Shown here: in pieces, positions 1-11,586 of the stretch
Layout: each line of letters opens with the position of its first letter
Numbering within the stretch: position 1 is the stretch's first letter
NCBI GenBank assembly: GCA_029260255.1
Contig: JAJDDR010000512.1
Coordinates: 1-11,586, forward strand
Length of the DNA stretch: 11,586 bases
Source of the DNA: Phycisphaerae bacterium
GTDB lineage: Bacteria > Planctomycetota > Phycisphaerae > UBA1845
Direction: 5' to 3'
Notes under the pieces: model-generated
Told to the model about the DNA's origin: nothing
Database searches by the model: none
The model's input: only the letters and a program-made list of their open reading frames with translations
Made by a program: the position numbers and the translations under genes

Positions 1-96
1 GTTGGGCGTGCGGGCGGCTTGCAGCGGCGTTCTGCCGTCCAACTCGGGGACGGGGTCGTCGGCCGCGCCGTCGGGCAGGATGATGGCATACTTCAT
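1..96 (-). CDS. N-terminal 32 codons of a cofactor-independent phosphoglycerate mutase family metalloenzyme (archaeal-type ApgM-like). The gene continues past the window start.
   Basis: The reverse complement of 96..1 reads ATG AAG TAT GCC ATC ATC CTG CCC GAC GGC ..., giving MKYAIILPDGAADDPVPELDGRTPLQAARTPN with no stop. This is the characteristic N-terminus (MKY-IL-PDG-AD-P---L-G-TPL--A-TPN) of the archaeal-type 2,3-bisphosphoglycerate-independent PGM / proposed homoserine-kinase family. A GAGGAGG Shine-Dalgarno lies 8 nt upstream of the ATG (complement of 105..111). The six-frame track missed it because it is truncated by the window edge. Confidence 0.6.
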   Translation of the reverse strand, partial: MKYAIILPDGAADDPVPELDGRTPLQAARTPN

Positions 97-200
97 GCGG
101 TGCGCCTCCTCTTCGCTCGCTCTGACGCAGGCAGCATACGCGCGGCGTGGGATCAGGTAAACGGTCTCGCAGCCGACGTCGTGCGTGGCAGTTCGGGTGG

Positions 201-224
201 CATGGCCACGCTTGCGTGGCCATG
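201..224. promoter_or_regulatory. 24-bp inverted repeat CATGGCCACGC-tt-GCGTGGCCATG (perfect 11-bp arms). Candidate operator or hairpin in the divergent apgM-like/metB-like promoter region.
   Basis: Read directly from the sequence: the arms are exact reverse complements. It lies in the 315-bp divergent intergenic region 97..411. An extra GCGTGGC half-site is at 183..189. Confidence 0.4.
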
Positions 225-243
225 TGCCTGGAACCTGTCGCCC

Positions 244-267
244 CATGCCCACGCAAGCGTGGGCATG
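244..267. promoter_or_regulatory. Second 24-bp inverted repeat CATGCCCACGC-aa-GCGTGGGCATG (perfect 11-bp arms). It is a near-copy, in reverse-complement orientation, of the element at 201..224.
   Basis: Read directly from the sequence. It differs from the reverse complement of element 1 only at the symmetric G/C position 5. The centre-to-centre spacing to element 1 is 43 bp, about four helical turns. Confidence 0.4.
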
Positions 268-411
268 CCACCCAACGCCGGTTGCCCGGGACAATCGCCT
301 CTGCTACCGTACCGGCGAAATCGCCCATGCGAACCGGGGACTTTGCTCGGCGGGCGCATTCCGGCGCGCGGTCGTCGCCGCGCTCGAAGTGTTCTGACGC
401 ATTAGACAACG

Positions 412-1569
412 ATGAAGGAGCTTGCGGTGAAGTTTGACACAAGAGTCGTGCGAGCGGGAATGACGCCGGATCCAACCACGGGTGCAGTTGTGCCGCCTAT
501 TTACCAGACCGCGACGTACGTTCTGGAAGAGGTGGGCCGGGACAAAGGCTTCGACTACACGCGATCGACGAACCCGACGCGCCAGACGATGGAGGAGCAA
601 CTCGCGGCCATCGAAGGCGGCAAGCACGCCGTTGCGTTCTCGAGCGGGATGGCGTCGGTGGACAGTTGCCTGAAGCTTCTTAAGTCGGGCGACCACGTGG
701 TGTGCTCCGACGACGTTTACGGCGGCGTGTCGCGACTGTTCAACACGGTGCTCACCAACTACGGTCTGAGTTTCACGTATGTCGATTCCTCGAACCCGGA
801 CAAGGTGCGCGAGGCGATTCAGCCGACGACCAAGATGCTCTGGGTGGAGACGCCGACCAACCCGTTGCTCAAGGTGACCGACCTGGCCGCGATGTCGGAG
901 ATCGCGAAGAAGCACGACCTGATCTTCGGCGTGGATTCGACGTTCGCCACGCCCGTGTTTCTCCGGCCGTTGGAGTACGGCGCCGACATTGCCATGCACA
1001 GCACGACGAAGTATCTCAGCGGGCACAATCAGTTGATCGGCGGAGTCGTCATCACCAATCGGCAGGACATCTTCGATCACATGAAGTACGTGCAGAAGAC
1101 GATCGGCGCCGTTCCCAGCCCGTTCGACTGCTGGCTCACGATGCTCGGCGTCAAGACGCTTCACCTTCGGATGAAGAGGCACGCCTCGAACGCACAGGTG
1201 GTGGCGGAGTTCCTCGAAGCACATCCGAAGGTCGAGCGAGTGTCGTACCCCGGGCTCGCCTCTCACCCGCAGCATGAAATCGCCAAGGCACAGATGAGCG
1301 GGTTCAGCGGCATGATCTCGTTCGAGCTGGTCGGCGGAATCGCAGCGGGCAAAACAGTGATGAACAACGTCAAGCTATGCGCGCTCGCCGAGAGCCTCGG
1401 CGCCGTGGAGACCATGATCACCCACCCGGCGACCATGACGCACGTGGACGTCCCGCGCGAGGAGCGCTGCGCCAGAGGACTGACCGACGGGCTGGTGCGC
1501 ATCTCGGTGGGCATCGAGGATCCCGACGACATCGTGGCCGACCTCGCCGCGGCACTCGAAAGGGCTTGA
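412..1569 (+). CDS. PLP-dependent Cys/Met-metabolism enzyme of the trans-sulfuration family (cystathionine gamma-synthase, cystathionine beta/gamma-lyase or methionine gamma-lyase type).
   Basis: 385-aa ORF with the full family signature. It has an N-terminal RAG...VPPIYQTATY segment, a glycine-rich PLP-phosphate loop (SSGMAS), and DSTFATPVFLRPLEYGADIAMHSTTKYLSGH carrying the PLP-lysine (TTKY). Length and motif order match MetB, MetC and MegL. The start is ambiguous: ATG 412 has no Shine-Dalgarno, whereas the in-frame GTG 427 is preceded by AAGGAG at a 6-nt spacing. The subfamily (synthase or lyase) cannot be decided by eye. Confidence 0.9.
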   Translation: MKELAVKFDTRVVRAGMTPDPTTGAVVPPIYQTATYVLEEVGRDKGFDYTRSTNPTRQTMEEQLAAIEGGKHAVAFSSGMASVDSCLKLLKSGDHVVCSDDVYGGVSRLFNTVLTNYGLSFTYVDSSNPDKVREAIQPTTKMLWVETPTNPLLKVTDLAAMSEIAKKHDLIFGVDSTFATPVFLRPLEYGADIAMHSTTKYLSGHNQLIGGVVITNRQDIFDHMKYVQKTIGAVPSPFDCWLTMLGVKTLHLRMKRHASNAQVVAEFLEAHPKVERVSYPGLASHPQHEIAKAQMSGFSGMISFELVGGIAAGKTVMNNVKLCALAESLGAVETMITHPATMTHVDVPREERCARGLTDGLVRISVGIEDPDDIVADLAAALERA

Positions 1570-1616
1570 CCCCTTCTCTCAGCCTGCGACCAGCGATCTT
1601 GGCATGCCAAGCGTAG

Positions 1617-1640
1617 GGCGGGTTCCACCCGCCTTAATGC
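1617..1640 (+). terminator. Possible intrinsic terminator of the trans-sulfuration gene: GGGCGGG-ttcca-CCCGCC stem-loop followed by TTAATGC.
   Basis: A 6-7 bp GC stem with a 5-nt loop lies 48 nt after the stop. The downstream tract is only weakly U-rich. It is preceded by a perfect 14-bp palindrome, CTTGGCATGCCAAG, at 1598..1611. Confidence 0.3.
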
Positions 1641-2012
1641 TCCGTTCACAAACTCTGAACCGACAACGTGCGCGCCCGATTTCCGAACGCGGCACAACCC
1701 GGCCGAGCACAGACCGCACACACGAACTGACCGGTCACGGTCGAAGTGTGCGGCACGTTCGCGCGATTAGCCGTACAGTGCAAAGTGGTCAGAACCGCGC
1801 CCGTCAGGAAGCGGCCTCGCGCGCATGAGGCGTTTGCGAGGGTTCGGCGCCGCTCCTTAACAGTCGCGGTTCTGCCACTGTGTCGACCTTGCGCTGTACT
1901 GTTAGGGTCCGGGCGCATCGCTGCACACGTCCAGCACCCCGCGACCCTGTGCATCCACCTCCGGCGTGGTATGATTCTTCCCGCGAACAACTCACAACGA
2001 CGGAGTGCCCGA

Positions 2013-2141
2013 ATGCAGGATCAGATCAAAGACCTCACGGACCGTGTCGCCCGCCTCGAAAAGCAAGTTCGGGCCGTCGCGCTCATGTGTGTTGTGGTCG
2101 CATTTGTCGCCGCGACCGCGTTCTGGATGCCGCTGTTGTGA
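2013..2141 (+). CDS. Hypothetical 42-aa small membrane protein with an N-terminal coiled-coil-like segment and one C-terminal transmembrane helix.
   Basis: ATG 2013 with GGAG 7 nt upstream. It encodes MQDQIKDLTDRVARLEKQVRAVALMCVVVAFVAATAFWMPLL, an amphipathic heptad-like N-terminus followed by a 20-residue hydrophobic stretch. The longer six-frame ORF 1746..2141 is Arg-rich nonsense upstream of this ATG. Confidence 0.3.
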   Translation: MQDQIKDLTDRVARLEKQVRAVALMCVVVAFVAATAFWMPLL

Positions 2142-2584
2142 AGACCGCGCCGCGTGCCCCTTATCAAGGTGCGTCGCTGCAGCATTCGCGATTCCGCAAG
2201 TGGCGCGAGTGGGTGGGGTTGGTCGGGTGTGTGGTGATTGTGGCGCCGGCCGATGCAATGCGACGCGGTGCCCGTCGCGCTGACCACACCTCGACCGGGG
2301 ACGCAGAGCCGGCCCCGCGCGGGATACGCCGCCGCCCGAAGCCGCTCGACGACAGACCCGACGTGACACCGGAAGCCGACCGCCCTCGTCCCGAACGGCG
2401 CCAAAAATCGCCCATATTGACCCGGAACACGGGCGCGCCGAAATCGAGCAGAAATCTGCGCACCGCCGCGCCCTTATATAGGTAGGGAGACAGCCGCCCC
2501 GGCGTTCCGAACACGCCGCCAGCCGATCGGAAGCGTCCGGCGAGAACACAAACGAGAGTGCCTTGTGCGAAGCGTCGATATGCC

Positions 2585-2710
2585 TAGGACATGTGAAAAA
2601 ATGGACCCAAAACACCGTTTCCAGACTGCAAACGCCGATTTTGCAGCGAAACGAAAAGCCGCAATGACGAAACGAACCCATTTGCAAGTCTCACTGCAAT
2701 TTCGCAGATG
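2585..2710. promoter_or_regulatory. AT-richer island packed with short inverted and direct repeats inside an otherwise GC-rich non-coding stretch of about 890 bp. Candidate regulatory region or small RNA.
   Basis: It contains an inverted repeat CTGCAAA-N7-TTTGCAG at 2626..2646. It contains the direct repeat CGAAACGAA twice, at 2647..2655 and 2668..2676, 21 bp apart. It contains an inverted repeat TTGCA-N7-TGCAA at 2682..2698. TTGCA/TGCAA half-sites occur four times in all, and there is an A6 tract at 2595..2600. No credible ORF covers it on either strand. Confidence 0.3.
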
Positions 2711-3083
2711 GGGCGTGAGGCTCCGAAACAGCCCGTCCGAAGCAGCCTCGATGGCGGACGCGTCCGCAACCACGCGTCGCGAAGAGCCCCCGGGCGCGGC
2801 GCCTGCAGGCGTAGGACCGCTGCACGACCCGCCGGGCGGATACCGTCCGTTCCGTGGGAAGTGCCAGCTCAATGGCACTACGCGACCGACCGGGTCGGGC
2901 GACGCGGAATCGACTTGCCGGCCCCCCGGGACGTGCTCAGGCAGGCATCGGTCGAATCTTGCGTGATCCGTTCGGAAACGGTTCGGCGTTTGTAATGGGC
3001 AGTTCGCGTCGCCTGATGTAAACTGTAGGGAGATGGTCGCCCCGTCTATTGCGACCTGGATCTCGCAACGCGGAGCAGGAGTC

Positions 3084-3803
3084 ATGATCTTACTGGCAGC
3101 ATCGATTCTGGAGTTTTCACCGTTGGCGGCGCTGACGACGGCGGGCATGCTTTACCTGATCTGCCTGATCGTCGGTGGCGGGCTTCTGCTGGTGTCGACT
3201 TTTCTCGGCGGTGACGCCGACGTTGACGTCGACGGCGGCGCCGATTTTGATTTCGACGCGGACCCGGATATCGACTTCGACGGCGACGTGGACCTGGACG
3301 CTGATGTCGCAGCGGATGCACCCGGGCTCTCGATCACCGACTGGTTCTCGACGCGATTCCTGGTGTACTTCGCGGCCGCGTTCGGGCTGGTCGGCACCGT
3401 GCTGACGTACACGTCAGCCATGGGATCGACGGCGATCCTGGTGAGCGCATTGGTGGGCGGCGTGATCGTGGGACAACTCGTCCATCAGGTGTTTCGAGCG
3501 CTGCGCAAGACCAGCGGCAACACACAAACCACGCGGCGAGACTACGTCAATCGCCGCGCCCGCGTGACGATCGCCATCGAGCCGCCGCGGCGCGGTGAAG
3601 TCGCGTTGCGCGTGCGCGGGCGCGAGCGTTTCGTGCCGTCGACGTCACAGCGGTCCGATGACCGATTCGTGGTCGGCGACAGCGTGGCCATCGTGGCGTT
3701 TGACAACGGAACGGCGGAGGTCGTTTCGCTGAGGGAATACGAGTTTCTGGCTGAATCCAAGGCAGGAGGCAACGATGAACACGACACTGATGGCACAGCT
3801 TAA
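3084..3803 (+). CDS. NfeD-like membrane protein (YuaF/COG1585 type; membrane anchor plus C-terminal OB-fold), the partner of the downstream flotillin.
   Basis: Two N-terminal hydrophobic helices (MILLAASILEFSPLAAL..LICLIVGGGLLLVSTFLGG) are followed by an acidic D-x-D repeat linker and two more helices. A C-terminal beta-rich segment (RARVTIAIEPP..GEVALRVRG..FVVGDSVAIVAFDNGTAEVVSL) is typical of the NfeD OB-fold. It sits immediately upstream of, and overlaps, an SPFH/flotillin gene, which is the classic nfeD-flotillin operon. ATG 3084 has GGAG 8 nt upstream. The longest ORF begins at ATG 3033, but that ATG directly abuts GGGAG. Confidence 0.8.
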   Translation: MILLAASILEFSPLAALTTAGMLYLICLIVGGGLLLVSTFLGGDADVDVDGGADFDFDADPDIDFDGDVDLDADVAADAPGLSITDWFSTRFLVYFAAAFGLVGTVLTYTSAMGSTAILVSALVGGVIVGQLVHQVFRALRKTSGNTQTTRRDYVNRRARVTIAIEPPRRGEVALRVRGRERFVPSTSQRSDDRFVVGDSVAIVAFDNGTAEVVSLREYEFLAESKAGGNDEHDTDGTA

Positions 3804-5121
3804 TTCCGAGACCGTTGTTCTGATCGGCGGCGGCATTCTGTTCATGATCGTCGCGGCGGCGGTCCTGGTCGCCAAGATCATGGTGGTCGGGAACCCCAGC
3901 GAGTTGCTGGTGATCAGCGGGAAGCAGACGCGTGGCGGGGACGGTTATCGCACGCTGATCGGCGGGCGCACGATGGTGATCCCGATCATCGAAAAGGTCG
4001 CCCGCGTCAGCCTGCGAAACATGCAGGTCGGGCTCGAGGTGAAGGCCCAGTCCGGCGGCGGGAGGATGATCCCGGTCACCGTGACCGGAGTGGCCAACGT
4101 GAAGGTATCGTCTGAACCGGACGTGCGTGGCAACGCCATCGAACGATTCCTGGGTCAACCGCAGACGGAATTGCAGCGCGTCGCGCGCGAAACGCTCGAG
4201 GGCGGCTTGCGCGCGGTGATCGGCAAGATGACGCCGGAGGAGATCGTCGAGGATCGCGATAAGTTCGTGGCGACGGTGATGAACGAAGTCACCGACGACT
4301 TCTGCAAACTCGGGATGGTGATCGACAGCGTCAATATCCAGAACGTACACGACGAGGACCAGTACCTCGAATCGATCGCCCGCAAGGCGTCGGCGCAGGT
4401 CCGTGCGGACGCTCGCCAATACGAAGCCCAGCGCAAATCGGAGGCCGACATCAAGGAAGCGGAGGCGGACGCTCTGGCGCGCGGAGCGCGTGCCGAACGA
4501 GACGCCGAGGCAAAAGAGACGGAGGCGCGCGGACGGCAGCGCGCCGAGCAGGCGCGACTCAGCGCGGAAACCGCCATCGCAGAATCCGACAACGCCCTGC
4601 GCATAAGGCGCGCGGAACTGGCCCGCGAGGCCGAACTCCGTGAAGCGGAAACGCAACAGGCTGCGGCGCAGGCCGAGGAGGCCCGCCTGTTCGCCACCAC
4701 GGTCAAACTGGCCGACGCCAATCGGGACGCGGCCAAGGCGAAGGCCGAGGGTGACGCCGCGTCCATCGTGGAAGAGGGAAAGGCACGCGCTTCCGCGATC
4801 GAGCAGATCGGCAAGGCGATCCACGCGCATCCGGATGCGCTGAAGGTCATTCTCGCCGAGATGCTGCCCGGCGTCGTGCAGGAACTCAGCAAGACCATCC
4901 AGGGCGTCGAGTTGGGCGACATCACGGTATTCGATGGCGGCAGCGGCAGCGCCATTGCCGGCGCGGCCATGAGCCGGGCGCGGATGCTGTCGGAATCGAT
5001 GGGGACGCTCGAGTCGGTGCTCGGCATCGACCTGCGCGATCTCACAAAGACGATCGCGGGCAACGTGACGAGTAATTCCAAGGGCGACGGCGCCCCCCGA
5101 ATCGCCGACGCAACGGCGTAG
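3775..5121 (+). CDS. Flotillin-like SPFH/Band-7 protein (FloT/YuaG type).
   Basis: 448 aa. It has an N-terminal membrane anchor (VVLIGGGILFMIVAAAVLVAKIMVV) and an SPFH/PHB core (ELLVISGKQTRGGDGYRTLIGGRTMVIPIIEKV...). A long E/A/R-rich coiled-coil 'flotillin' region follows (AQRKSEADIKEAEADALARGARAERDAEAKETEARGRQRAEQARL...). A strong GGAGG Shine-Dalgarno lies 5 nt upstream of ATG 3775. The gene overlaps the NfeD-like gene by 29 nt. Confidence 0.9.
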   Translation: MNTTLMAQLNSETVVLIGGGILFMIVAAAVLVAKIMVVGNPSELLVISGKQTRGGDGYRTLIGGRTMVIPIIEKVARVSLRNMQVGLEVKAQSGGGRMIPVTVTGVANVKVSSEPDVRGNAIERFLGQPQTELQRVARETLEGGLRAVIGKMTPEEIVEDRDKFVATVMNEVTDDFCKLGMVIDSVNIQNVHDEDQYLESIARKASAQVRADARQYEAQRKSEADIKEAEADALARGARAERDAEAKETEARGRQRAEQARLSAETAIAESDNALRIRRAELAREAELREAETQQAAAQAEEARLFATTVKLADANRDAAKAKAEGDAASIVEEGKARASAIEQIGKAIHAHPDALKVILAEMLPGVVQELSKTIQGVELGDITVFDGGSGSAIAGAAMSRARMLSESMGTLESVLGIDLRDLTKTIAGNVTSNSKGDGAPRIADATA

Positions 5122-5162
5122 CGCGTTTGGCGCGGCGTGTTGGCTGGGACGAAGCGTTGGAG

Positions 5163-5735
5163 TCAATCGGCGTTCTTGACCGCCTTCAGCGCGTAGCTCC
5201 AGTGCATGTGGTCTTCGAGGGTCAGGTAGATCATCTCCCAGTCGTACTCGGCACAGAATTCGTGGACGGCTTGGACGACGCCGTACGCGATGCTCTGCGC
5301 AATGCTGCCCTGGCAGTAGTCATGACCGGCGATGATGCCGCCTGACTTGACCTTGCTCCGGCATAGCTCGAGTTCCTTGACGGTCTGCTCGTAGGCATGA
5401 CTCGTGTCGATGTACACCCAGTCGAAGTAGTCGTCTTCGAACTCGGCCAGCCGGGCCAGCGAATCGCCTTTGTGAATTGTGACGCGATCGGAGGCAACCT
5501 CATCGGCGAACCGTTCCCTGACGGACTTCTCTTTGGCGTCGCCGAATCGTTCGCTTCCCCACATGTCAATGAGGTGCAGTTTCGCAGGCTGTGTGAGCTT
5601 CAGTATCCTGGCGGAGAAGCCACCCTCGTCCACGCCCAGCTCCGCAATGACCCCGTTCTTGGGAAGCATCTGGAGCATCTTCGATCGTCGGGGCAGCGCG
5701 TTGAGGTTTCGCAGGTGTCTTCTGTGAATGGACAT
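5163..5735 (-). CDS. Class I SAM-dependent methyltransferase (small stand-alone O-/C-methyltransferase-like protein). The substrate is unknown.
   Basis: Motif I is VIAELGVDEGGFS (E/D-x-G-x-G-x-G-like). An acidic residue ends beta-2 (HLIDMW). The post-motif-II segment is DWVYIDTSHAYEQT...SGGIIAGHDY. The ORF extends to 5777, but the first ATG (5735) has GGGGA 5 nt upstream. It is convergent with the flotillin gene. Confidence 0.8.
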   Translation of the reverse strand: MSIHRRHLRNLNALPRRSKMLQMLPKNGVIAELGVDEGGFSARILKLTQPAKLHLIDMWGSERFGDAKEKSVRERFADEVASDRVTIHKGDSLARLAEFEDDYFDWVYIDTSHAYEQTVKELELCRSKVKSGGIIAGHDYCQGSIAQSIAYGVVQAVHEFCAEYDWEMIYLTLEDHMHWSYALKAVKNAD

Positions 5736-6027
5736 ATCGATCCCCGGGTTTCGTCGGATTCCAGCGGCCGGCAGCATGCCGCGTGCGTCATAGCGGCGTC
5801 GCGTCTACTGCCCGAGGGCCCATCGTGCGCCCGGTGACCCGCATTGTCTCCGAGTGACGTCAGCGTATGCTATGATACACCGTGCCTGCCGACAAGTCCT
5901 CGGACGTCGGCCGTGCTTGTTGCAAGCCGGGGTTCCCGGCGGAATCGAACCGAGGATCGGGGCGTCGGCGCGCGTTGCGCGCGGGCGGCTTCATCGTCGG
6001 GCTAACTTCAAACCGTGGAGACCGTGG

Positions 6028-7401
6028 ATGCGTCGAGTCCTTCTTTCCGCCGTCGCTGTGATGTGGACGCTCCCCGCGCATGGTCAACAGAGCGACGACG
6101 ATCGTACCCGCGCGCCCCGCGTCCAGACGGTGACACCCGCGACGGGCGCAGAGGGAGTCGCACCCGGATCGGCCGAGATTCACGTGCGCTTCGACATGCC
6201 TATGAGCCGAGAAGGCTACTCGTTCGTCGGCAGCGGTCCACACTTTCCACAGCCGACGGGCGCGGCCCGCTGGATCGACGCGTACGAGTGTGTTCTGCCG
6301 GTGAAACTCAAACCGAGCTGGGTATACCGATTCGGCATCAACAGCCCTCGGCACAAGAACTTCCGGAGCGTGTGGCTTGTGCCGGTCGTGCCCGTCGCGT
6401 GCCAGTTCGAGACGGCCGGCGTGAGTGCCGTCAAGCATACGCCGGACGAGCAACGCAGGCTGAATATCACGTCCTACGATGCGCTCTGTGAGGCGATGCG
6501 CACGCGGTACTCCTATCTCGAGCGTCTCGGTCTCGACTGGGAAGCGGTTTTTGCCGCGCACCGGAAGGAAGTCGTCGACGCGCCCGATGTGCAAGAGTGG
6601 ACTCGGCGTGCGGCGCGGATGCTGTCAAGCGCGGAGGATCTTCATCTGCTGCTCGAACTCGATGGCGACAAACACGCCACTGCGGTTCGCTCGGTGACGC
6701 CGAATTGGAACCGGGCGTCGACCAATGAGGCGTTTCCGGACATGCGGGACCTCGGGAGCGGGGTGGCCGTCGCCCGGGCGAGTGACGGCATCGGTTACGT
6801 GCTGATCGGCACGTGGTCGAACGACGCGGGAGCCGCGGTCGAACGCCTCCACACCGTGTTCGCGGAGATGGTGGACGCGCCGGGGATCGTTATCGACGTG
6901 CGACCCAACGCCGGCGGTAGTGAGACGCTCGCGCGGAAGGTGGCCGCGTGGTTTGTGGACAAGCCGCGCGTCTATGCAAGACACGCGTTTCGCCGGGGAC
7001 CGAACTCGGACGACTTCACGCCGGAACGGGAGCGCACTGTCAAGCCTAATGATGCTGACCGGCGATATCGCGGCCCCGTCGTCGTGCTCATGGGCAGAGC
7101 GAACATGAGCAGTTGCGAGGCGTTCCTGCTGATGATGAAGCAGGCGCCGAATGCGACGCTGGTCGGCGAAACGTCTTATGGCAGCTCGGGCAATCCGAAG
7201 CCTGCTTTCCTGCCCAATGGAGTGATCGCCCACATCCCGTCGTGGAAGGCGATGTTGCCGGACGGATCGACGTTCGAAGGACGCGGCATCCCCCCGGACG
7301 TTGAAATCCCGTCCAAGGGCGTCGACTTTGCCAAGCGCGACCCCGTGCTGGACGCGGGCCTCCGGCTACTGCGCGAACGGGCAGCGAACAAGGAACGGTA
7401 G
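6028..7401 (+). CDS. Secreted S41-family serine peptidase (C-terminal-processing/tail-specific protease-like) with an N-terminal signal peptide and an N-terminal beta-rich (Ig-like) domain.
   Basis: ATG 6028 with GGAG 7 nt upstream gives the signal peptide MRRVLLSAVAVMWTLPAHG|QQ. The S41 core motifs are present: GIVIDVRPNAGGSE, GPVVVLMGRANMSSCEAFLLMMK (candidate catalytic Ser in SSCE and Lys in MMK) and TLVGETSYGSSGNP. The upstream 58 codons of the long ORF 5854.. are Arg-rich and do not look coding. Confidence 0.85.
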   Translation: MRRVLLSAVAVMWTLPAHGQQSDDDRTRAPRVQTVTPATGAEGVAPGSAEIHVRFDMPMSREGYSFVGSGPHFPQPTGAARWIDAYECVLPVKLKPSWVYRFGINSPRHKNFRSVWLVPVVPVACQFETAGVSAVKHTPDEQRRLNITSYDALCEAMRTRYSYLERLGLDWEAVFAAHRKEVVDAPDVQEWTRRAARMLSSAEDLHLLLELDGDKHATAVRSVTPNWNRASTNEAFPDMRDLGSGVAVARASDGIGYVLIGTWSNDAGAAVERLHTVFAEMVDAPGIVIDVRPNAGGSETLARKVAAWFVDKPRVYARHAFRRGPNSDDFTPERERTVKPNDADRRYRGPVVVLMGRANMSSCEAFLLMMKQAPNATLVGETSYGSSGNPKPAFLPNGVIAHIPSWKAMLPDGSTFEGRGIPPDVEIPSKGVDFAKRDPVLDAGLRLLRERAANKER

Positions 7402-7468
7402 GGGCGACTGTGACCGGATGATCGCAAGACGGCCAGCGCCGACCGCCGACAGGGCGATCCCACGGGAG

Positions 7469-7486
7469 TTCGCCTCGCCAGGCGAA
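7469..7486. terminator. Stem-loop TTCGCCT-cgcc-AGGCGAA between the convergent peptidase and vsr genes. Possible bidirectional terminator with no U-tract.
   Basis: Read directly from the sequence: a 7-bp perfect stem with a 4-nt loop. No T-run follows on either strand, so the assignment is weak. Confidence 0.2.
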
Positions 7487-7534
7487 GGAAGAACCCCACC
7501 CTGGCCGATCACTTGATCGCGCCCGGAACAGCCT

Positions 7535-7939
7535 TCAACCCCGCAAGGAATCCCGCAGGCGCTTCGCCAGCCAATCGGGACGGCGAGTCCAACATTCCCA
7601 TACGACCATTGCCTGCCATCCCTGTCGTCGGAGGTCACGCAGGTTTCGACGATCCCTCGTCTTGTTCTGTTCGAACTTCGTGAGCCAGAATTGCCGCCGA
7701 GTCGCCGGTGTCGTCGCTCGCTTGCATCGATGCCGATGCCAGAAGCACCCATGAACGAAGATGATCTTGCGGAGCCTCGGAAGGACGATATCTGGTGAGC
7801 CGGGGAGATCTCGGACGTAGAGACGGTAGCGATACCCCATCCCGTGGATGAGTCTTCTGACGATCAGTTCGGGCTTCGAGTCCCGCTGCGGGACAGCGGC
7901 CATCATTCGCGATCGCTGCTCTGGCGAAACGATGTCCAT
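7535..7939 (-). CDS. vsr: Very-short-patch repair endonuclease Vsr (T:G mismatch endonuclease that accompanies C5-cytosine methyltransferases).
   Basis: 134 aa from MDIVSPEQRSRMMAAVPQRDSKPELIVRRLIHGMGYRYRLYV..DIVLPRLRKIIFVHGCFWHRHRC...FW..K...N..RD......L...GW...VVWEC. It aligns along its whole length with E. coli Vsr, including the FxHGCFWHxHxC signature. The six-frame ORF extends to 8077, but that part overlaps the upstream gene. ATG 7939 lies 17 nt after the upstream stop. Confidence 0.9.
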   Translation of the reverse strand: MDIVSPEQRSRMMAAVPQRDSKPELIVRRLIHGMGYRYRLYVRDLPGSPDIVLPRLRKIIFVHGCFWHRHRCKRATTPATRRQFWLTKFEQNKTRDRRNLRDLRRQGWQAMVVWECWTRRPDWLAKRLRDSLRG

Positions 7940-7956
7940 CCGCTGCAGTTGCCCCT

Positions 7957-8655
7957 CTACACAACGTACGCTTTCTCCGCGATGTACTTCTGGATGTTCT
8001 CCAAAATGCCTCTCACGAAGACGACAGCCTGCTCCTTTGTCTCGCGCAACTGGTCCACCGTGAATGCCCTGCCGCACTCACGAAACGACAAAACACCATG
8101 GGCAAGGTGGTTCCGCTGTGCAACCACCGTAGCGAGGTCGGCACCACCCAGAGCGTCTGGCGGTGTTTCCACCGGGATTCCGAGGCGATGGCAGATTACT
8201 CGTACCTTCTCTGCATCTAGATTGCCTGCTGTTGGAAGATGCTGGGAGTCCATTGCGACCACGACTTGATTCACTACGTGGGAGACGAGCTCCTTCGCTG
8301 TGTCCTGATACGTCCTCAGCGACGCTGAATGTCGGTCAATGCCCCGAAACTGCTGATCAATCCAGACTGACCGAACCTCCTCCCGAAGGTCCTCGCACTT
8401 GCATCCTTCACTCTTCATTGTCTCATAGAGCGAGCCGAGCGCACTCCGAATAGCAGCTTCGACGAGGTTGTAGATCAACAAGAACGACGTGGCCTTCAGG
8501 GTCTTCACCCACTCTCTGTCGATTTCCTTCTCGAGATCGTGGTTATCGCCCTCGAACACGAGCCTTGCATTGGGCTGTTCAAGGTCGCCAAGGGACTCAA
8601 AGTACGTGTTGATCTCCGCTACACGCTCGTCAAAATCGTCAAGCACACCCTTCAT
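7957..8655 (-). CDS. 232-aa predicted all-helical protein with a C-terminal R-x4-H motif (AQRNHLAHG). Putative HEPN-like RNase effector partnered with the DUF262 protein.
   Basis: Clean ORF with codon usage like its upstream neighbour. The start ATG overlaps the DUF262 stop as ATGA (8652..8655). A GAGGAGG Shine-Dalgarno lies 7 nt upstream. The only recognisable catalytic-looking motif is R-N-H-L-A-H near the C-terminus, followed by a predicted helix, which is the HEPN arrangement. No PD-(D/E)xK, HNH or DUF1524 signature was seen. The functional call is inference. Confidence 0.55.
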   Translation of the reverse strand: MKGVLDDFDERVAEINTYFESLGDLEQPNARLVFEGDNHDLEKEIDREWVKTLKATSFLLIYNLVEAAIRSALGSLYETMKSEGCKCEDLREEVRSVWIDQQFRGIDRHSASLRTYQDTAKELVSHVVNQVVVAMDSQHLPTAGNLDAEKVRVICHRLGIPVETPPDALGGADLATVVAQRNHLAHGVLSFRECGRAFTVDQLRETKEQAVVFVRGILENIQKYIAEKAYVV

Positions 8656-9710
8656 TCCCTCGCCTCCTCGAGCAGTCGGTCGCGGACGTACTCGATCCTG
8701 CCTTTCAGGCGGGGAAGCGAGTTGCTGGCGTGCGTGGTTGTATGGGTTTTGAAGTCTGGTGAATCAAGCCACGCCATCGGACCCGGGATTAGGTCAGGGT
8801 GCTCGCGGAGTGCGAGGTTGACGCCCACGGAAATCGCCTCGAAGCGTACCCGTGGCGCCGATCGCATTTGGGGCCCTTTGGCGAATCCGTGGGGGAAATG
8901 CTGCTCTACGAATCGAAGCATACGAGCGAATTCTCGTGCCATGCTCTCCTCATCAAAACCCTTCTGCTGGTCGCAAGCGAACTTGTCCAAGAATTTATGC
9001 ACAGAATGACGGAATTTCTTGTAGCGATCGGAGTAGGCAAAGAAACGTAGAACCAATTCCGTGGGTTCACGCCGTAGACGCATGATCTCACTGATAGGGC
9101 AGAGCTTGCCAAAGAGCGGATCCTGTGAGACGCGCTTGAGGAAGTCCATGAAGGGACCCGGATAAGCACCCCTTCGGACTTCGCTCGGTCTGGCTTTTTC
9201 GCCTCGTGTGTTGATTCTCTTGAACAACTCGTATCGCAAATCGCGAGTCGTTCTCTCCTCCAACACGACTATCCGAAGTGGGCGACTCGCGAACTTGCGC
9301 TGCTGCGATGTCGGAAGGTCTGAATGATAGAAGTCGTTGAGGCTGTGGAGTTTCTCCAAGCCCGTTAGCCTGAGTCCATCCTCCATGAAACTCTCGAGCG
9401 TGTACATGCGCTGGGCGCCGTCGACGATCTCAAACCGCCCATCGTCCATCTCCGCGAAGAACATCATCGGAATTGGCAGACCGAGGATGACGGATTCTAT
9501 GAAGGCACACTTGTTGCTCATGCGCCACACGTATTCGCGCTGGTAGTCTGGGATGTAGTACAGATCTTCCCGGAATTTGCCCACAAGGTAGTCGATGGGA
9601 AGGTCGCGAATATTGAAGTCGACGTCCCGCTGAGTCTGTCGTATCTGTTGCTCGGCGCGCCTCTGCTCTTCGGGGGTCACTTTGAACAGCTCGACTGAGG
9701 CCTTGGACAT
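8652..9710 (-). CDS. Stand-alone DUF262 protein: ParB-like/'DGQHR' NTPase domain, the N-terminal domain of GmrSD/SspE/BrxU-type modification-sensing enzymes. It has no fused DUF1524 nuclease.
   Basis: 352 aa. The hallmark motifs are IPDYQREYVW (IPxYQRxYxW), LGLPIP, EIVDGAQRMYTL (DGxQR) and LFKRINTRGEKARPSEV. The C-terminal 170 aa are helical without His-Me or HNH motifs. A GAGGT Shine-Dalgarno lies 6 nt upstream of ATG 9710. It starts 10 nt after the MTase stop. Confidence 0.9.
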   Translation of the reverse strand: MSKASVELFKVTPEEQRRAEQQIRQTQRDVDFNIRDLPIDYLVGKFREDLYYIPDYQREYVWRMSNKCAFIESVILGLPIPMMFFAEMDDGRFEIVDGAQRMYTLESFMEDGLRLTGLEKLHSLNDFYHSDLPTSQQRKFASRPLRIVVLEERTTRDLRYELFKRINTRGEKARPSEVRRGAYPGPFMDFLKRVSQDPLFGKLCPISEIMRLRREPTELVLRFFAYSDRYKKFRHSVHKFLDKFACDQQKGFDEESMAREFARMLRFVEQHFPHGFAKGPQMRSAPRVRFEAISVGVNLALREHPDLIPGPMAWLDSPDFKTHTTTHASNSLPRLKGRIEYVRDRLLEEARE

Positions 9711-9720
9711 GTTTGTACCT

Positions 9721-10863
9721 CTACCCGATATGGTCCATTATGTTACTGATGACGTATGCGGACATCACCGGAGGGACGGCATTCCCAATCAAATCCTGGA
9801 GGGACCTCCGTGTTTTGGCCGCTGAGAAATCGAAGAAATCCGGGAAGCCCTGGATTCTCGCGGCTTCGTGCGGCGTGATGACGCGCGGGCGCGTCGGGTG
9901 GACGAATCGACCTTGGCCCATGCAGCCGAAGCCGGTGGTGATCGTCTGGGCGGGCTGATCCCATTTCAGGCGGCCGTACATGGAGATGTAGCTGTGGCCG
10001 TTCTCATGGCACGGCGGGCGCTGCTCGTTCGGCAGATCGTACACATCGTGCTTGAAGAGGTATTCGACGCGTTTGCGGTTGCGCAGCGTCATGCGAGATG
10101 GCGTGCGGAACATCTCGGTTCGGTGTTCCGACTCGTCCTGAATGTCGGCGAGATAGTCCGAGACGGCGACCGGCTGCTGACAATCGGTCGGGAAGGCGTC
10201 GGCGACGTCGAATTCGGCATCTCGCACGGCGAGGAGGATGTGTCGTTTGCGGCGCTGGGGCAGACCGAGCGTCGAGGCCCTGACGATGCGGGCCGCGACG
10301 GAGTATCCGAGAGACTTCAGTGTCTTGAGGCTGCGCGCCACGACGTTCGAGTGATCGTGAATGACCGGACCCACGTTTTCGATGAGCACGATTCGGGGCT
10401 TCAGCAATTCGACCGTGCGGACCACCCGCAGGTAGAGCGCGTTTCTCGGGTCCTTCCGCCGTGTGTGGTTGTTCAGGTCCGAATGCCCCTGACAGGGAGG
10501 GCCTGCCACGAGGATGTCGACCTTGCCGGCCTTCCGAACTGCCGTTAGTTCGACAGCTTGCGGTGGTGATCCCAGCTTTCCCGGGAACACTTCGCGGATA
10601 TCGATCTCCCGAGCGGTTGTCTTCGAGACGGCGAAGTTCGCTCGGTACACGGCCAGTGCATCACCACAGGTGTCGATCGCGAGTTTGACCTTCAGTGTCT
10701 TGTTGTTGACGCGCGCCGCCTCCCAGGCGCCGAGCGTGAGCCCCCCGCAACCGCAGAACAGGTCGACGATCGAGACCGTCCCGCGGGATGTCTGTGGAGG
10801 CGTCGGCCACGTTTTCCAGCGAATCCACGTGGCGGCACAGATGCTGGCCGGTGACGACGGCAT
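9721..10863 (-). CDS. DNA (cytosine-5)-methyltransferase (Dcm-like C5-MTase).
   Basis: All C5-MTase motifs are present in order: I IVDLFCGCGG, IV ILVAGPPCQGHS (catalytic Cys), VI LIENV, VIII QRRKRHILL, TRD element RLKWDQPAQTITTG, and IX/X GNAVPPVMSAYV. The ORF in the track starts at an in-frame TTG (10899). The first ATG is 10863, and neither has a good Shine-Dalgarno. About 30 aa precede motif I. Confidence 0.9.
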   Translation of the reverse strand: MPSSPASICAATWIRWKTWPTPPQTSRGTVSIVDLFCGCGGLTLGAWEAARVNNKTLKVKLAIDTCGDALAVYRANFAVSKTTAREIDIREVFPGKLGSPPQAVELTAVRKAGKVDILVAGPPCQGHSDLNNHTRRKDPRNALYLRVVRTVELLKPRIVLIENVGPVIHDHSNVVARSLKTLKSLGYSVAARIVRASTLGLPQRRKRHILLAVRDAEFDVADAFPTDCQQPVAVSDYLADIQDESEHRTEMFRTPSRMTLRNRKRVEYLFKHDVYDLPNEQRPPCHENGHSYISMYGRLKWDQPAQTITTGFGCMGQGRFVHPTRPRVITPHEAARIQGFPDFFDFSAAKTRRSLQDLIGNAVPPVMSAYVISNIMDHIG

Positions 10864-10998
10864 GGGCGGCACTATACCCGCGAGGGCAGGCGACGCCAAC
10901 TCACGCTACGTGTCCAATACCCAAGGACGCCGGAAGTGCCATTGCGCGCGCCGGGTGTCCCGGAAGAGTCACACGCCGATCGCCGCGGGCCGCGATCA

Positions 10999-11586
10999 CT
11001 ATCGCCTGCTGTAGAGTCGATCGTCTGCGCTGAGGAATCCGTTCTTGGGGAAGTCCATCAGCATCTCGGCTGTGGCGGACGCGCCGGGCTTGCGGAAGCG
11101 CGCGGTGGTGGACTCGCCGTGGCCGTCGACGAAGGTGATGTTCGTTGCGTTCGCGTGGCGGTATGCCTGGGTGCCGGCGTGAACGAGCGCTTCGGGCACG
11201 CCGGTGTCACGCGGTGCGCGCATGAACTTGTTCGCGCCGGAAGCGTAGCCGCCGTCTCCGGTGATGGCCGTCGCTGACGGGCGGCGCATCTCCGTATCCA
11301 GGGCGGGCGATTCGCCCATTCCGAGAAACGAGCCCTCGCCTTGGCCTCTGCCGATGTAGGAGGTGTTGTAGTTGTAACCCGTGAAGGGGTCAGCGGCGGT
11401 CATGCTCGGGCCCTTGTACGACGGGCACTGCTGGGTTTCATGACCCTGAATATACCGCCAGATGAGTCCGGGCTCGGTACTGCCCGAGGCCGTGGGCCGA
11501 CTCGTCGTATCCCACGCGACCCACGCGCCGTTGCTGTGGTCGAAATACTGCGCGATGGGAAACCGATCCGCGTTGTCGTTGGTGTA
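10999..11586 (-). CDS. C-terminal part of a DUF1559 protein with a prepilin-type H-X9-DG motif (planctomycete-type pseudopilin-like secreted protein). The gene start lies beyond the window end.
   Basis: The reading frame is open from the window end through to stop TAG at 10999..11001 (...YTNDNADRFPIAQYFDHSNGAWVAWDTTSRPTASGSTEPGLIWRYIQGHETQQCPSYKGPSMTAAD...). The terminal H-ANATNITFV-DG is an exact H-X9-DG. The M at 11403 in the six-frame track is internal. Confidence 0.8.
   Translation of the reverse strand, partial: YTNDNADRFPIAQYFDHSNGAWVAWDTTSRPTASGSTEPGLIWRYIQGHETQQCPSYKGPSMTAADPFTGYNYNTSYIGRGQGEGSFLGMGESPALDTEMRRPSATAITGDGGYASGANKFMRAPRDTGVPEALVHAGTQAYRHANATNITFVDGHGESTTARFRKPGASATAEMLMDFPKNGFLSADDRLYSRR

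Follow-up and report, generated by a model that had tools for sequence, protein, structure and literature searches.

Introduction

How could a ribonuclease (RNase) be controlled by a DUF262 sensor whose gene stands beside that of a DNA methylase? The question is raised by four adjacent genes in an 11,586-nt stretch of DNA from a Phycisphaerae bacterium (Planctomycetota; GenBank assembly GCA_029260255.1, contig JAJDDR010000512.1, positions 1 to 11,586), hereafter the window, which encode a C5 cytosine DNA methyltransferase (MTase), a DUF262 protein, a 232-aa HEPN protein and the mismatch endonuclease Vsr. We consider it probable that these genes constitute a defence or abortive-infection cassette in which sensor and effector are split, and evenly balanced whether they amount to a horizontally mobile, methylation-linked defence cassette of the abortive-infection type, made of two functional halves and with a sensor keyed to the methyl mark. 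Gene content, catalytic motifs, folds, the obligate pairing of the DUF262 and HEPN genes, their clade-specific linkage to MTases and their carriage on phages and plasmids were observed directly.

The closest description of such genes is the MAE_28990 row in Table 1 of Anantharaman, Makarova, Burroughs, Koonin and Aravind (2013; Biol Direct 8:15), which is computational only, and HEPN domains associated with restriction-modification (R-M) systems have been argued to act like PrrC (PMC3710099). Fusions of COG1479/DUF262 to HEPN were interpreted as a module, appended to DNA modification systems, that probably serves programmed cell death (Makarova et al., 2013). The DUF262 domains of GmrSD, BrxU and SspE are nucleoside triphosphatase (NTPase) sensors of DNA modification (PMC10952713, PMC12065111), and PD-T4-2, composed of DUF262 and HEPN proteins, protects against phage T4 both natively in Escherichia coli ECOR65 and when cloned in K-12 (Vassallo et al., 2022; PMC9519451). 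An initial interpretation of the window made from its letters alone (the sequence-only reading) had presented the module as undescribed; this view had to be abandoned, given the 2013 prediction, the validation of PD-T4-2 against T4 and the fact that NCBI annotation already names the family, with the labels 'MAE_28990/MAE_18760 family HEPN-like nuclease' and 'DUF262 domain-containing protein'.

Gene content of the cassette

According to the list of open reading frames (ORFs), all four genes lie co-directionally on the minus strand. Direct reading of the sequence placed the DUF262 ATG 10 nt after the MTase stop and the vsr ATG 17 nt after the HEPN stop, with a 4-nt overlap (ATGA) joining the DUF262 and HEPN genes, so that the tight same-strand arrangement claimed by the sequence-only reading was borne out at each junction. 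Its proposal of a HEPN-type protein with an R-x4-H motif, beside a DUF262 protein without a fused DUF1524 nuclease, was equally upheld when both middle proteins were searched with profile models of DUF262, DUF1524 and HEPN: the first and the last were found, DUF1524 was not.

The 232-aa protein matched PF18737 (HEPN_MAE_28990) at 1e-22, with 81.8 bits against a cut-off of 26.8, over residues 5-230; a PD-(D/E)xK or other DNA endonuclease fold, which would have spoken against the proposal, was not detected. The R-x4-H motif reads R181-N-H-L-A-H186-G, being invariant in 13 close homologues and retained in 88 of 89 wider relatives, and the protein has the alpha-helical HEPN bundle fold, consisting by profile search of a single HEPN domain with no ATPase. 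The only loss of the motif among the 89 relatives was observed in Prochloron sp. (L059, HEPN gene 6001-6660), where RNNLADG replaces the catalytic His with Asp and the gene may be an inactivated copy. The HEPN profile recovered 1,785 clusters at 50% identity, nearly all of them stand-alone proteins of about 230 aa. A match of the window protein to PF18735 stayed below threshold (4.6e-4, 20.6 bits against a cut-off of 28.4), and no PADLOC model, PD-T4-2_B included, matched it or four relatives (E <= 1 or 0.01).

The DUF262 protein matched PF03235 at 3.8e-25 (89.6 bits against a cut-off of 33.2) and carries the three motifs of the family, namely QRxxxW as YQREYVW, DGxQR as DGAQR and FxxxN as FKRIN, which are conserved in alignments and constitute the NTP-binding set. 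Among the scanned relatives, DGxQR and QRxxxW were each retained in 78/78 and FxxxN in 73/78. The profile search found neither DUF1524 nor any other nuclease domain in the protein, and its helical C-terminal half, a putative ParBDB-like DNA-binding domain, showed no nuclease fold. Within this domain, a region of lower model confidence, residues 325-331 (window 8718-8738) form a nearly invariant T-T-H-A-S-N-S motif, which could be a DNA- or partner-contact site. In searches of PDB chains by sequence, the HEPN protein gave no match and the DUF262 protein only a marginal one to BrxU (E = 0.014); judged by such similarity, no solved structure is available among the close relatives of either.

In the PADLOC library, the top match of the DUF262 protein was NsnA of Menshen (2.1e-57, residues 20-280), a match that spans the ParB-DUF262 domain and extends into the C-terminal one; PD-T4-2_A followed at 2.8e-31 (residues 49-301), and the 'Type II REase' model PDLC03418 (372 positions) matched the ParB-like N-terminal domain at 8e-16 (residues 28-194). 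From the latter match, a DUF262 protein seems to have been classified as a restriction enzyme in the source set for R-M models; PDLC03418 also matches DUF262 relatives on plasmids and phages. These results bear on the model proposed in 2013, in which the DUF262 partner, there termed a 'ParB nuclease', would itself be a DNA endonuclease directed at unmethylated DNA, while the R-M proteins would keep the HEPN RNase inactive as a back-up, to be released in a PrrC-like manner only when a phage inhibits them (Anantharaman et al., 2013). The 'Type II REase' match would agree with such a role, as would the convergent orientation of methylase and partner genes found in many loci (see below), which is typical of R-M systems. 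In BrxU, SspE and GmrSD, however, DUF262 acts as an NTPase and the DNA is cut by DUF1524, which is absent here, and the motifs conserved in the present family are those for NTP binding, which makes the endonuclease model quite unlikely.

The outer genes were assigned without ambiguity, in agreement with the domain calls of the sequence-only reading. The MTase matched PF00145 at 1.8e-52, TIGR00675 at 2.5e-42 and the PADLOC model MTase_II/DruM at 1e-100, and is related to C5-MTases in the PDB; its translation shows FCGCGG, PPCQ, ENV, QRRKR and GNAVPP, and with motifs I, IV, VI, VIII, IX and X all present it looks active. Vsr matched PF03852 at 3.4e-28 and TIGR00632 at 3.2e-40, and aligned with E. 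coli Vsr (1cw0) at 4.9e-31, including the PD(I/F)V and FxHGCFWHxH catalytic segments.

Pairing, methylase context and Vsr across genomes

The distribution of the HEPN family was examined in one genome per GTDB species, yielding 217 HEPN loci, 80 of which were fetched and surveyed; relatives thus occur in 217 species-representative genomes, in addition to temperate phages and plasmids. A DUF262 gene was located directly upstream of the HEPN gene, on the same strand, in 80/80 surveyed loci, and the same pairing recurred in metagenome loci, often with overlapping stop and start codons. A DNA MTase was adjacent in at least 51/80 loci, of the C5 type in 49 and of the N6_N4 type in two. The neighbourhood survey suggested by the sequence-only reading therefore returned the pair beside methylases in many genomes, contrary to the possibility that the two never meet outside the window. 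The C5-MTase genes (n = 49) were mostly downstream and convergent (34), the others being upstream co-directional (9, one with Vsr between), downstream co-directional (5) or upstream divergent (1). Metagenome and isolate loci reached from either protein held the same triad of MTase, DUF262 and HEPN genes in Planctomycetota, Bacteroidota (Marinifilum, Aquimarina) and others.

The MTase is a frequent partner, not an obligatory one, and the catalytic motifs of the pair are intact with or without it. Upstream neighbours of about 890 aa and of 871 aa, recurrent beside MTase-less cyanobacterial pairs, were considered as candidate large MTases and rejected, being aconitase B and ClpB, respectively; MTase-less pairs that do not lie on truncated contigs are flanked by these and further housekeeping genes.

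Vsr is an optional accessory. Its gene is confined to the window and, among the other loci, to L001/L008, L002, L015, L016, L019 and L068, and its position varies: the order of MTase (M), DUF262 (D), HEPN (H) and Vsr (V) genes can be M-D-H-V, M-V-D-H, V-M-D-H or D-H-M...V, the last with vsr about 0.8 kb downstream of M, or vsr can lie on the other strand together with M. The sequence-only reading had seen the middle pair as an insertion between dcm and vsr. With Vsr in a minority of loci and in five arrangements, such an 'insertion' is one permutation among several and does not define the system, and that part of the reading falls.

Co-inheritance and mobility

The cassette is horizontally mobile. 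L001, a contig of a Phycisphaerae metagenome-assembled genome, aligned with the window at 83.7% nucleotide identity (blastn) over 7709-10910 alone, and its translated coverage (tblastx) was confined to 7703-10903; its flanking genes differ from those of the window and the genomic context is unrelated. The confinement of the match between different flanks implies that the four genes form a discrete transferable unit. DNA homology stops inside vsr, and the vsr of L001 (4818-5047) appears truncated or frameshifted, the gene call being 58 aa long and tblastn giving two pieces that overlap; Vsr accordingly looks dispensable. G+C content is 0.54-0.58 across 7500-9750, compared with about 0.64 in the flanks, and no tRNA gene, integrase or flanking repeat marking an insertion was found around the cassette in the window.

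As regards co-inheritance, loci that are distant in one of the MTase, DUF262 and HEPN proteins tend to be distant in the others too (correlation of pairwise distances, r = 0.84-0.95), a range that is partly confounded by shared phylogeny and inflated because the sample is rich in cyanobacteria. The MTases of the surveyed loci fall into four lineages, one of which is found with the pair in Cyanobacteria, Bacteroidota and Firmicutes as well as on a Moraxella phage and a Klebsiella plasmid. When cyanobacterial loci (L020-L085) were grouped by concatenated DUF262+HEPN sequence at >= 67% identity, each clade had a single MTase context, with no exceptions: convergent C5 in 31/31 informative members, none in 10/10, N6_N4 in 2/2 and none in 3/3. 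In the MTase-less clade of ten, the pair lies beside acnB. It appears that one sensor-effector pair has been re-keyed, in some clades to a different methylase and in others to no methylase.

Phages and plasmids carry these genes as well. The triad occupies the variable hotspot after replication gene A in a P2-like coliphage (L093, Peduovirus P2_4B2, record 29078-31979), whose C5 MTase is annotated as a 234-aa fragment and is possibly frameshifted; it stands beside a CI-like S24/HTH repressor in nine Moraxella phages (e.g. Moraxella phage Mcat24, L095), and it is found on a Klebsiella plasmid. Plasmids of E. coli (an IncF plasmid in the record examined) and of Salmonella carry the pair without MTase. 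As a further context, in L091 (1-8684) and L092 the triad directly follows the genes for a Helicase_C helicase, an MZB/DUF1998 protein and a PLD nuclease, a DISARM-like arrangement, and may be part of a different defence system or an appendage to one.

Carriage on plasmids and prophages, together with the translational coupling of the pair, would also suit a toxin-antitoxin system, in which the DUF262 NTPase would act as antitoxin to a HEPN toxin, as in HEPN-MNT or MAE_18760-ParA, the MTase/Vsr genes and the pair stabilising their mobile carrier with no primary anti-phage role; HEPN toxins neutralised by an adjacent nucleotide-using enzyme provide a precedent. Yet the DUF262 partner is large, highly conserved and of sensor-family architecture rather than a small labile antitoxin, its relative PD-T4-2 has a demonstrated defence phenotype, native strain included, and stable vertical inheritance beside acnB in Nostocales contrasts with pure addiction. 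We hold this explanation to be very unlikely.

Proposed mode of action

In the reading we prefer, the C5-MTase would methylate host DNA as the self-marking half of the cassette, and Vsr would repair T:G mismatches arising from 5-methylcytosine deamination, limiting the C-to-T mutational cost. The obligate, translationally coupled DUF262-HEPN pair would represent the effector half: by analogy with GmrSD, BrxU and SspE, the DUF262 protein, a ParB/sulfiredoxin-like NTPase with a helical domain of the DNA-binding type, would be the modification sensor and NTP-driven switch, while the HEPN protein is presumably an RNase that works as a dimer, needs no metal and attacks tRNA, mRNA or rRNA. The sensor would tolerate DNA bearing the cognate methyl mark; unmarked DNA, either from an incoming phage or plasmid or from the host after MTase loss or inhibition, would cause it to license the RNase, which would arrest translation, aborting the infection or killing segregants. 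We infer that the two proteins form a complex, that the HEPN protein cleaves RNA (and which RNA it cleaves), that the signal has this polarity and that the cassette confers defence. That the methylase exerts a functional gate on the pair of this lineage is, to us, an open wager with neither side favoured; that the specific trigger is DNA lacking the mark is a tentative suggestion.

Stated in its most specific form, the cassette would be an R-M system with an RNA-cutting 'restriction' arm, whose ParB-like NTPase scans for an absent 5-methylcytosine mark and switches on the HEPN RNase. Self and non-self would be told apart epigenetically as in R-M, with abortive infection as the output, and in sister clades the sensor would have been re-keyed, in some to an N4/N6 methylase and in others to none. 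We know of no system for which this logic has been demonstrated; it was hypothesised in outline in 2013, and we find it possible but doubtful.

The tie between a DUF262 sensor, a HEPN effector and methylation, already advanced by the sequence-only reading, stood in part: the invariant pairing, the frequency of adjacent MTases and the way in which MTase type tracks the clades all fit it, whereas about a third of the pairs, and PD-T4-2, have no adjacent MTase. Several points weigh against our interpretation. The MTase-less pairs number about 29/80, some of them on truncated contigs; along with PD-T4-2, which works without a cloned MTase, they imply that the MTase is not universally required and that the trigger need not be missing methylation. 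Sequence conservation of the DUF262 protein is high (55-60% identity across phyla) while the MTase lineages differ, which fits poorly with a strict site-specific sensor. The distance correlations have the phylogenetic component already mentioned. Since the HEPN protein has no PADLOC match, homology to the validated PD-T4-2 is based on the DUF262 partner and on similarity at the level of the Pfam clan. Finally, in the literature search the MAE_28990/MAE_18760 family was named only in the 2013 analysis and no tested member was found.

An alternative is a type IV-like mechanism, in which DUF262 senses foreign, hypermodified or differently modified DNA (with, for example, hydroxymethylcytosine or glucosyl-hydroxymethylcytosine) and activates the HEPN RNase, the MTase and Vsr being a separate co-travelling module that exerts no gating. 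In its favour, modified DNA is what every characterised DUF262 enzyme (GmrSD, BrxU, SspE) reacts to; PD-T4-2 came out of a selection on T4 and was cloned without an MTase, the ten T4-selected systems generally protecting against T2 and T6 too; and roughly one third of the surveyed pairs stand without an adjacent MTase. Co-localisation on an island alone is not expected, however, to yield MTase adjacency in >= 64% of loci that persists through several rearrangements, a clade-specific MTase context (31/31, 2/2, 10/10), correlated distances, or the three genes together on phages and plasmids. The type IV-like mechanism is therefore judged unlikely.

Feature coordinates, gene starts and surroundings

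The positions of the genes, of a promoter-like site and of the transferable block are listed in Table 1.

Table 1. Features of the cassette, in window coordinates.
Feature	Position	Strand	Description
C5-MTase gene	9721-10899	-	C5 cytosine DNA methyltransferase, predicted self-marking component; PF00145, TIGR00675 and PADLOC matches
DUF262 gene	8652-9710	-	DUF262/GmrSD_N ParB-like NTPase with helical C-terminal domain; predicted sensor/transducer
HEPN gene (232 aa)	7957-8655	-	MAE_28990 family; predicted RNase effector; start overlaps DUF262 stop
vsr	7535-7939	-	Very-short-patch T:G mismatch endonuclease, accessory; PF03852, TIGR00632
Sigma-70-like match TTGGCG-17-TATAGT	10871-10899	-	Possible operon promoter; weak evidence
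Transferable cassette extent	7703-10910	n/a	Block common to the window and L001; coincides with the G+C dip

The vsr start was set at the ATG at 7939, where the conserved Vsr sequence begins, inside a longer mechanical ORF (7535-8077). Two starts are candidates for the MTase, TTG 10899 of the mechanical ORF (392 aa) and ATG 10863 (380 aa), and the choice is ambiguous, the latter, which has a promoter-like site upstream, being at least as likely. This site, whose match ends 7 nt before ATG 10863, hints at a short-leader transcript and a 380-aa MTase; a scan for promoters and terminators over 7300-11200 gave nothing above shuffle expectation (one promoter-like site found, 1.2 expected), for which reason the match counts as weak evidence.

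The other genes of the window are ordinary, encoding a Cys/Met pyridoxal-phosphate (PLP) enzyme, an SPFH/Band 7 protein, a class I methyltransferase and an S41 peptidase. At 3033-5121 (+), the gene for a predicted membrane protein of 256 aa, which has no Pfam match and contains an acidic stretch rich in D, overlaps the start of the SPFH/Band 7 (flotillin-like) gene by 29 nt; the arrangement looks NfeD-SPFH-type and is unrelated to the cassette.

Comparison with known systems

The DUF262 protein resembles GmrSD, BrxU and SspE in having an N-terminal ParB-like NTPase domain with QRxxxW, DGxQR and FxxxN followed by a helical domain, in the middle of the protein in those enzymes. The window differs in its separate HEPN effector and its linked modifying MTase, the opposite of a classical type IV enzyme, and membership in the GmrSD type IV group was rejected, no DUF1524 His-Me finger nuclease being fused or paired. 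Menshen (NsnABC) shares the NsnA-like DUF262 + ParBDB protein, whereas the window has a HEPN protein as partner and includes an MTase; as the genes downstream encode HEPN and Vsr proteins, with neither an NsnB ATPase nor an NsnC inPIN-nuclease effector, assignment to Menshen was likewise rejected.

PrrC and RloC also place a latent HEPN-type RNase among DNA modification genes. They combine it with an ABC-ATPase N-terminal domain and with type I (EcoprrI-like) systems, where the window has a DUF262 NTPase and a stand-alone C5 MTase; no ABC ATPase, no type I R-M locus and no sequence relationship to PrrC/RloC were detected for the window proteins. Type II R-M cassettes based on 5-methylcytosine and provided with a vsr gene are known (M-R-V type, as in dcm-vsr and many 'V.' genes in REBASE), and convergent M/R orientations are common. 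The window shares with them the company of C5-MTase and Vsr and a 'restriction-side' function between or beside the two, with the DUF262 + HEPN pair in the place of the endonuclease. It was not classed as a classical type II R-M system, no PD-(D/E)XK, HNH, GIY-YIG, PLD or half-pipe endonuclease fold being detected.

Among tested systems, PD-T4-2 has the same two-gene DUF262 + HEPN core, and the window DUF262 protein matches PD-T4-2_A as reported above. Their HEPN proteins belong to the same Pfam clan, PF18735 being reported for PD-T4-2 and matched weakly (4.6e-4) by the window protein. PD-T4-2 is smaller, with two ORFs in 1,540 bp, and its cloned fragment has no MTase or Vsr; membership in PD-T4-2 proper was rejected, in view of the missing PD-T4-2_B match in the window HEPN protein and four relatives.

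The MAE_28990 operons of 2013 are nearest to the window, sharing the HEPN family PF18737, the conserved R-x4-H motif, the PrrC-like rationale and an operon composed of a ParB-like (DUF262) gene and a DNA methylase, a description that the window meets. The 2013 account gives no survey numbers, does not name Vsr in the operon and regards the ParB-like partner as a DNase, as opposed to the NTPase sensor of the present reading. The window cassette thus joins a computationally known kind with a tested anti-phage relative, and its gene content is unsurprising to a specialist; it adds no new principle, being a compact four-gene version from a high-G+C planctomycete genome. What the survey contributes is to turn a one-line table entry into testable statements, namely an obligate pair, a clade-specific methylase context (C5, N4/N6 or none) and an optional Vsr, and to sharpen the central question of how a DUF262 sensor beside a methylase controls an RNase. 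If methylation state does gate that RNase, epigenetic self-marking would be linked to abortive infection, and the presence of a 'type IV-like' sensor beside a methylase would be explained too.

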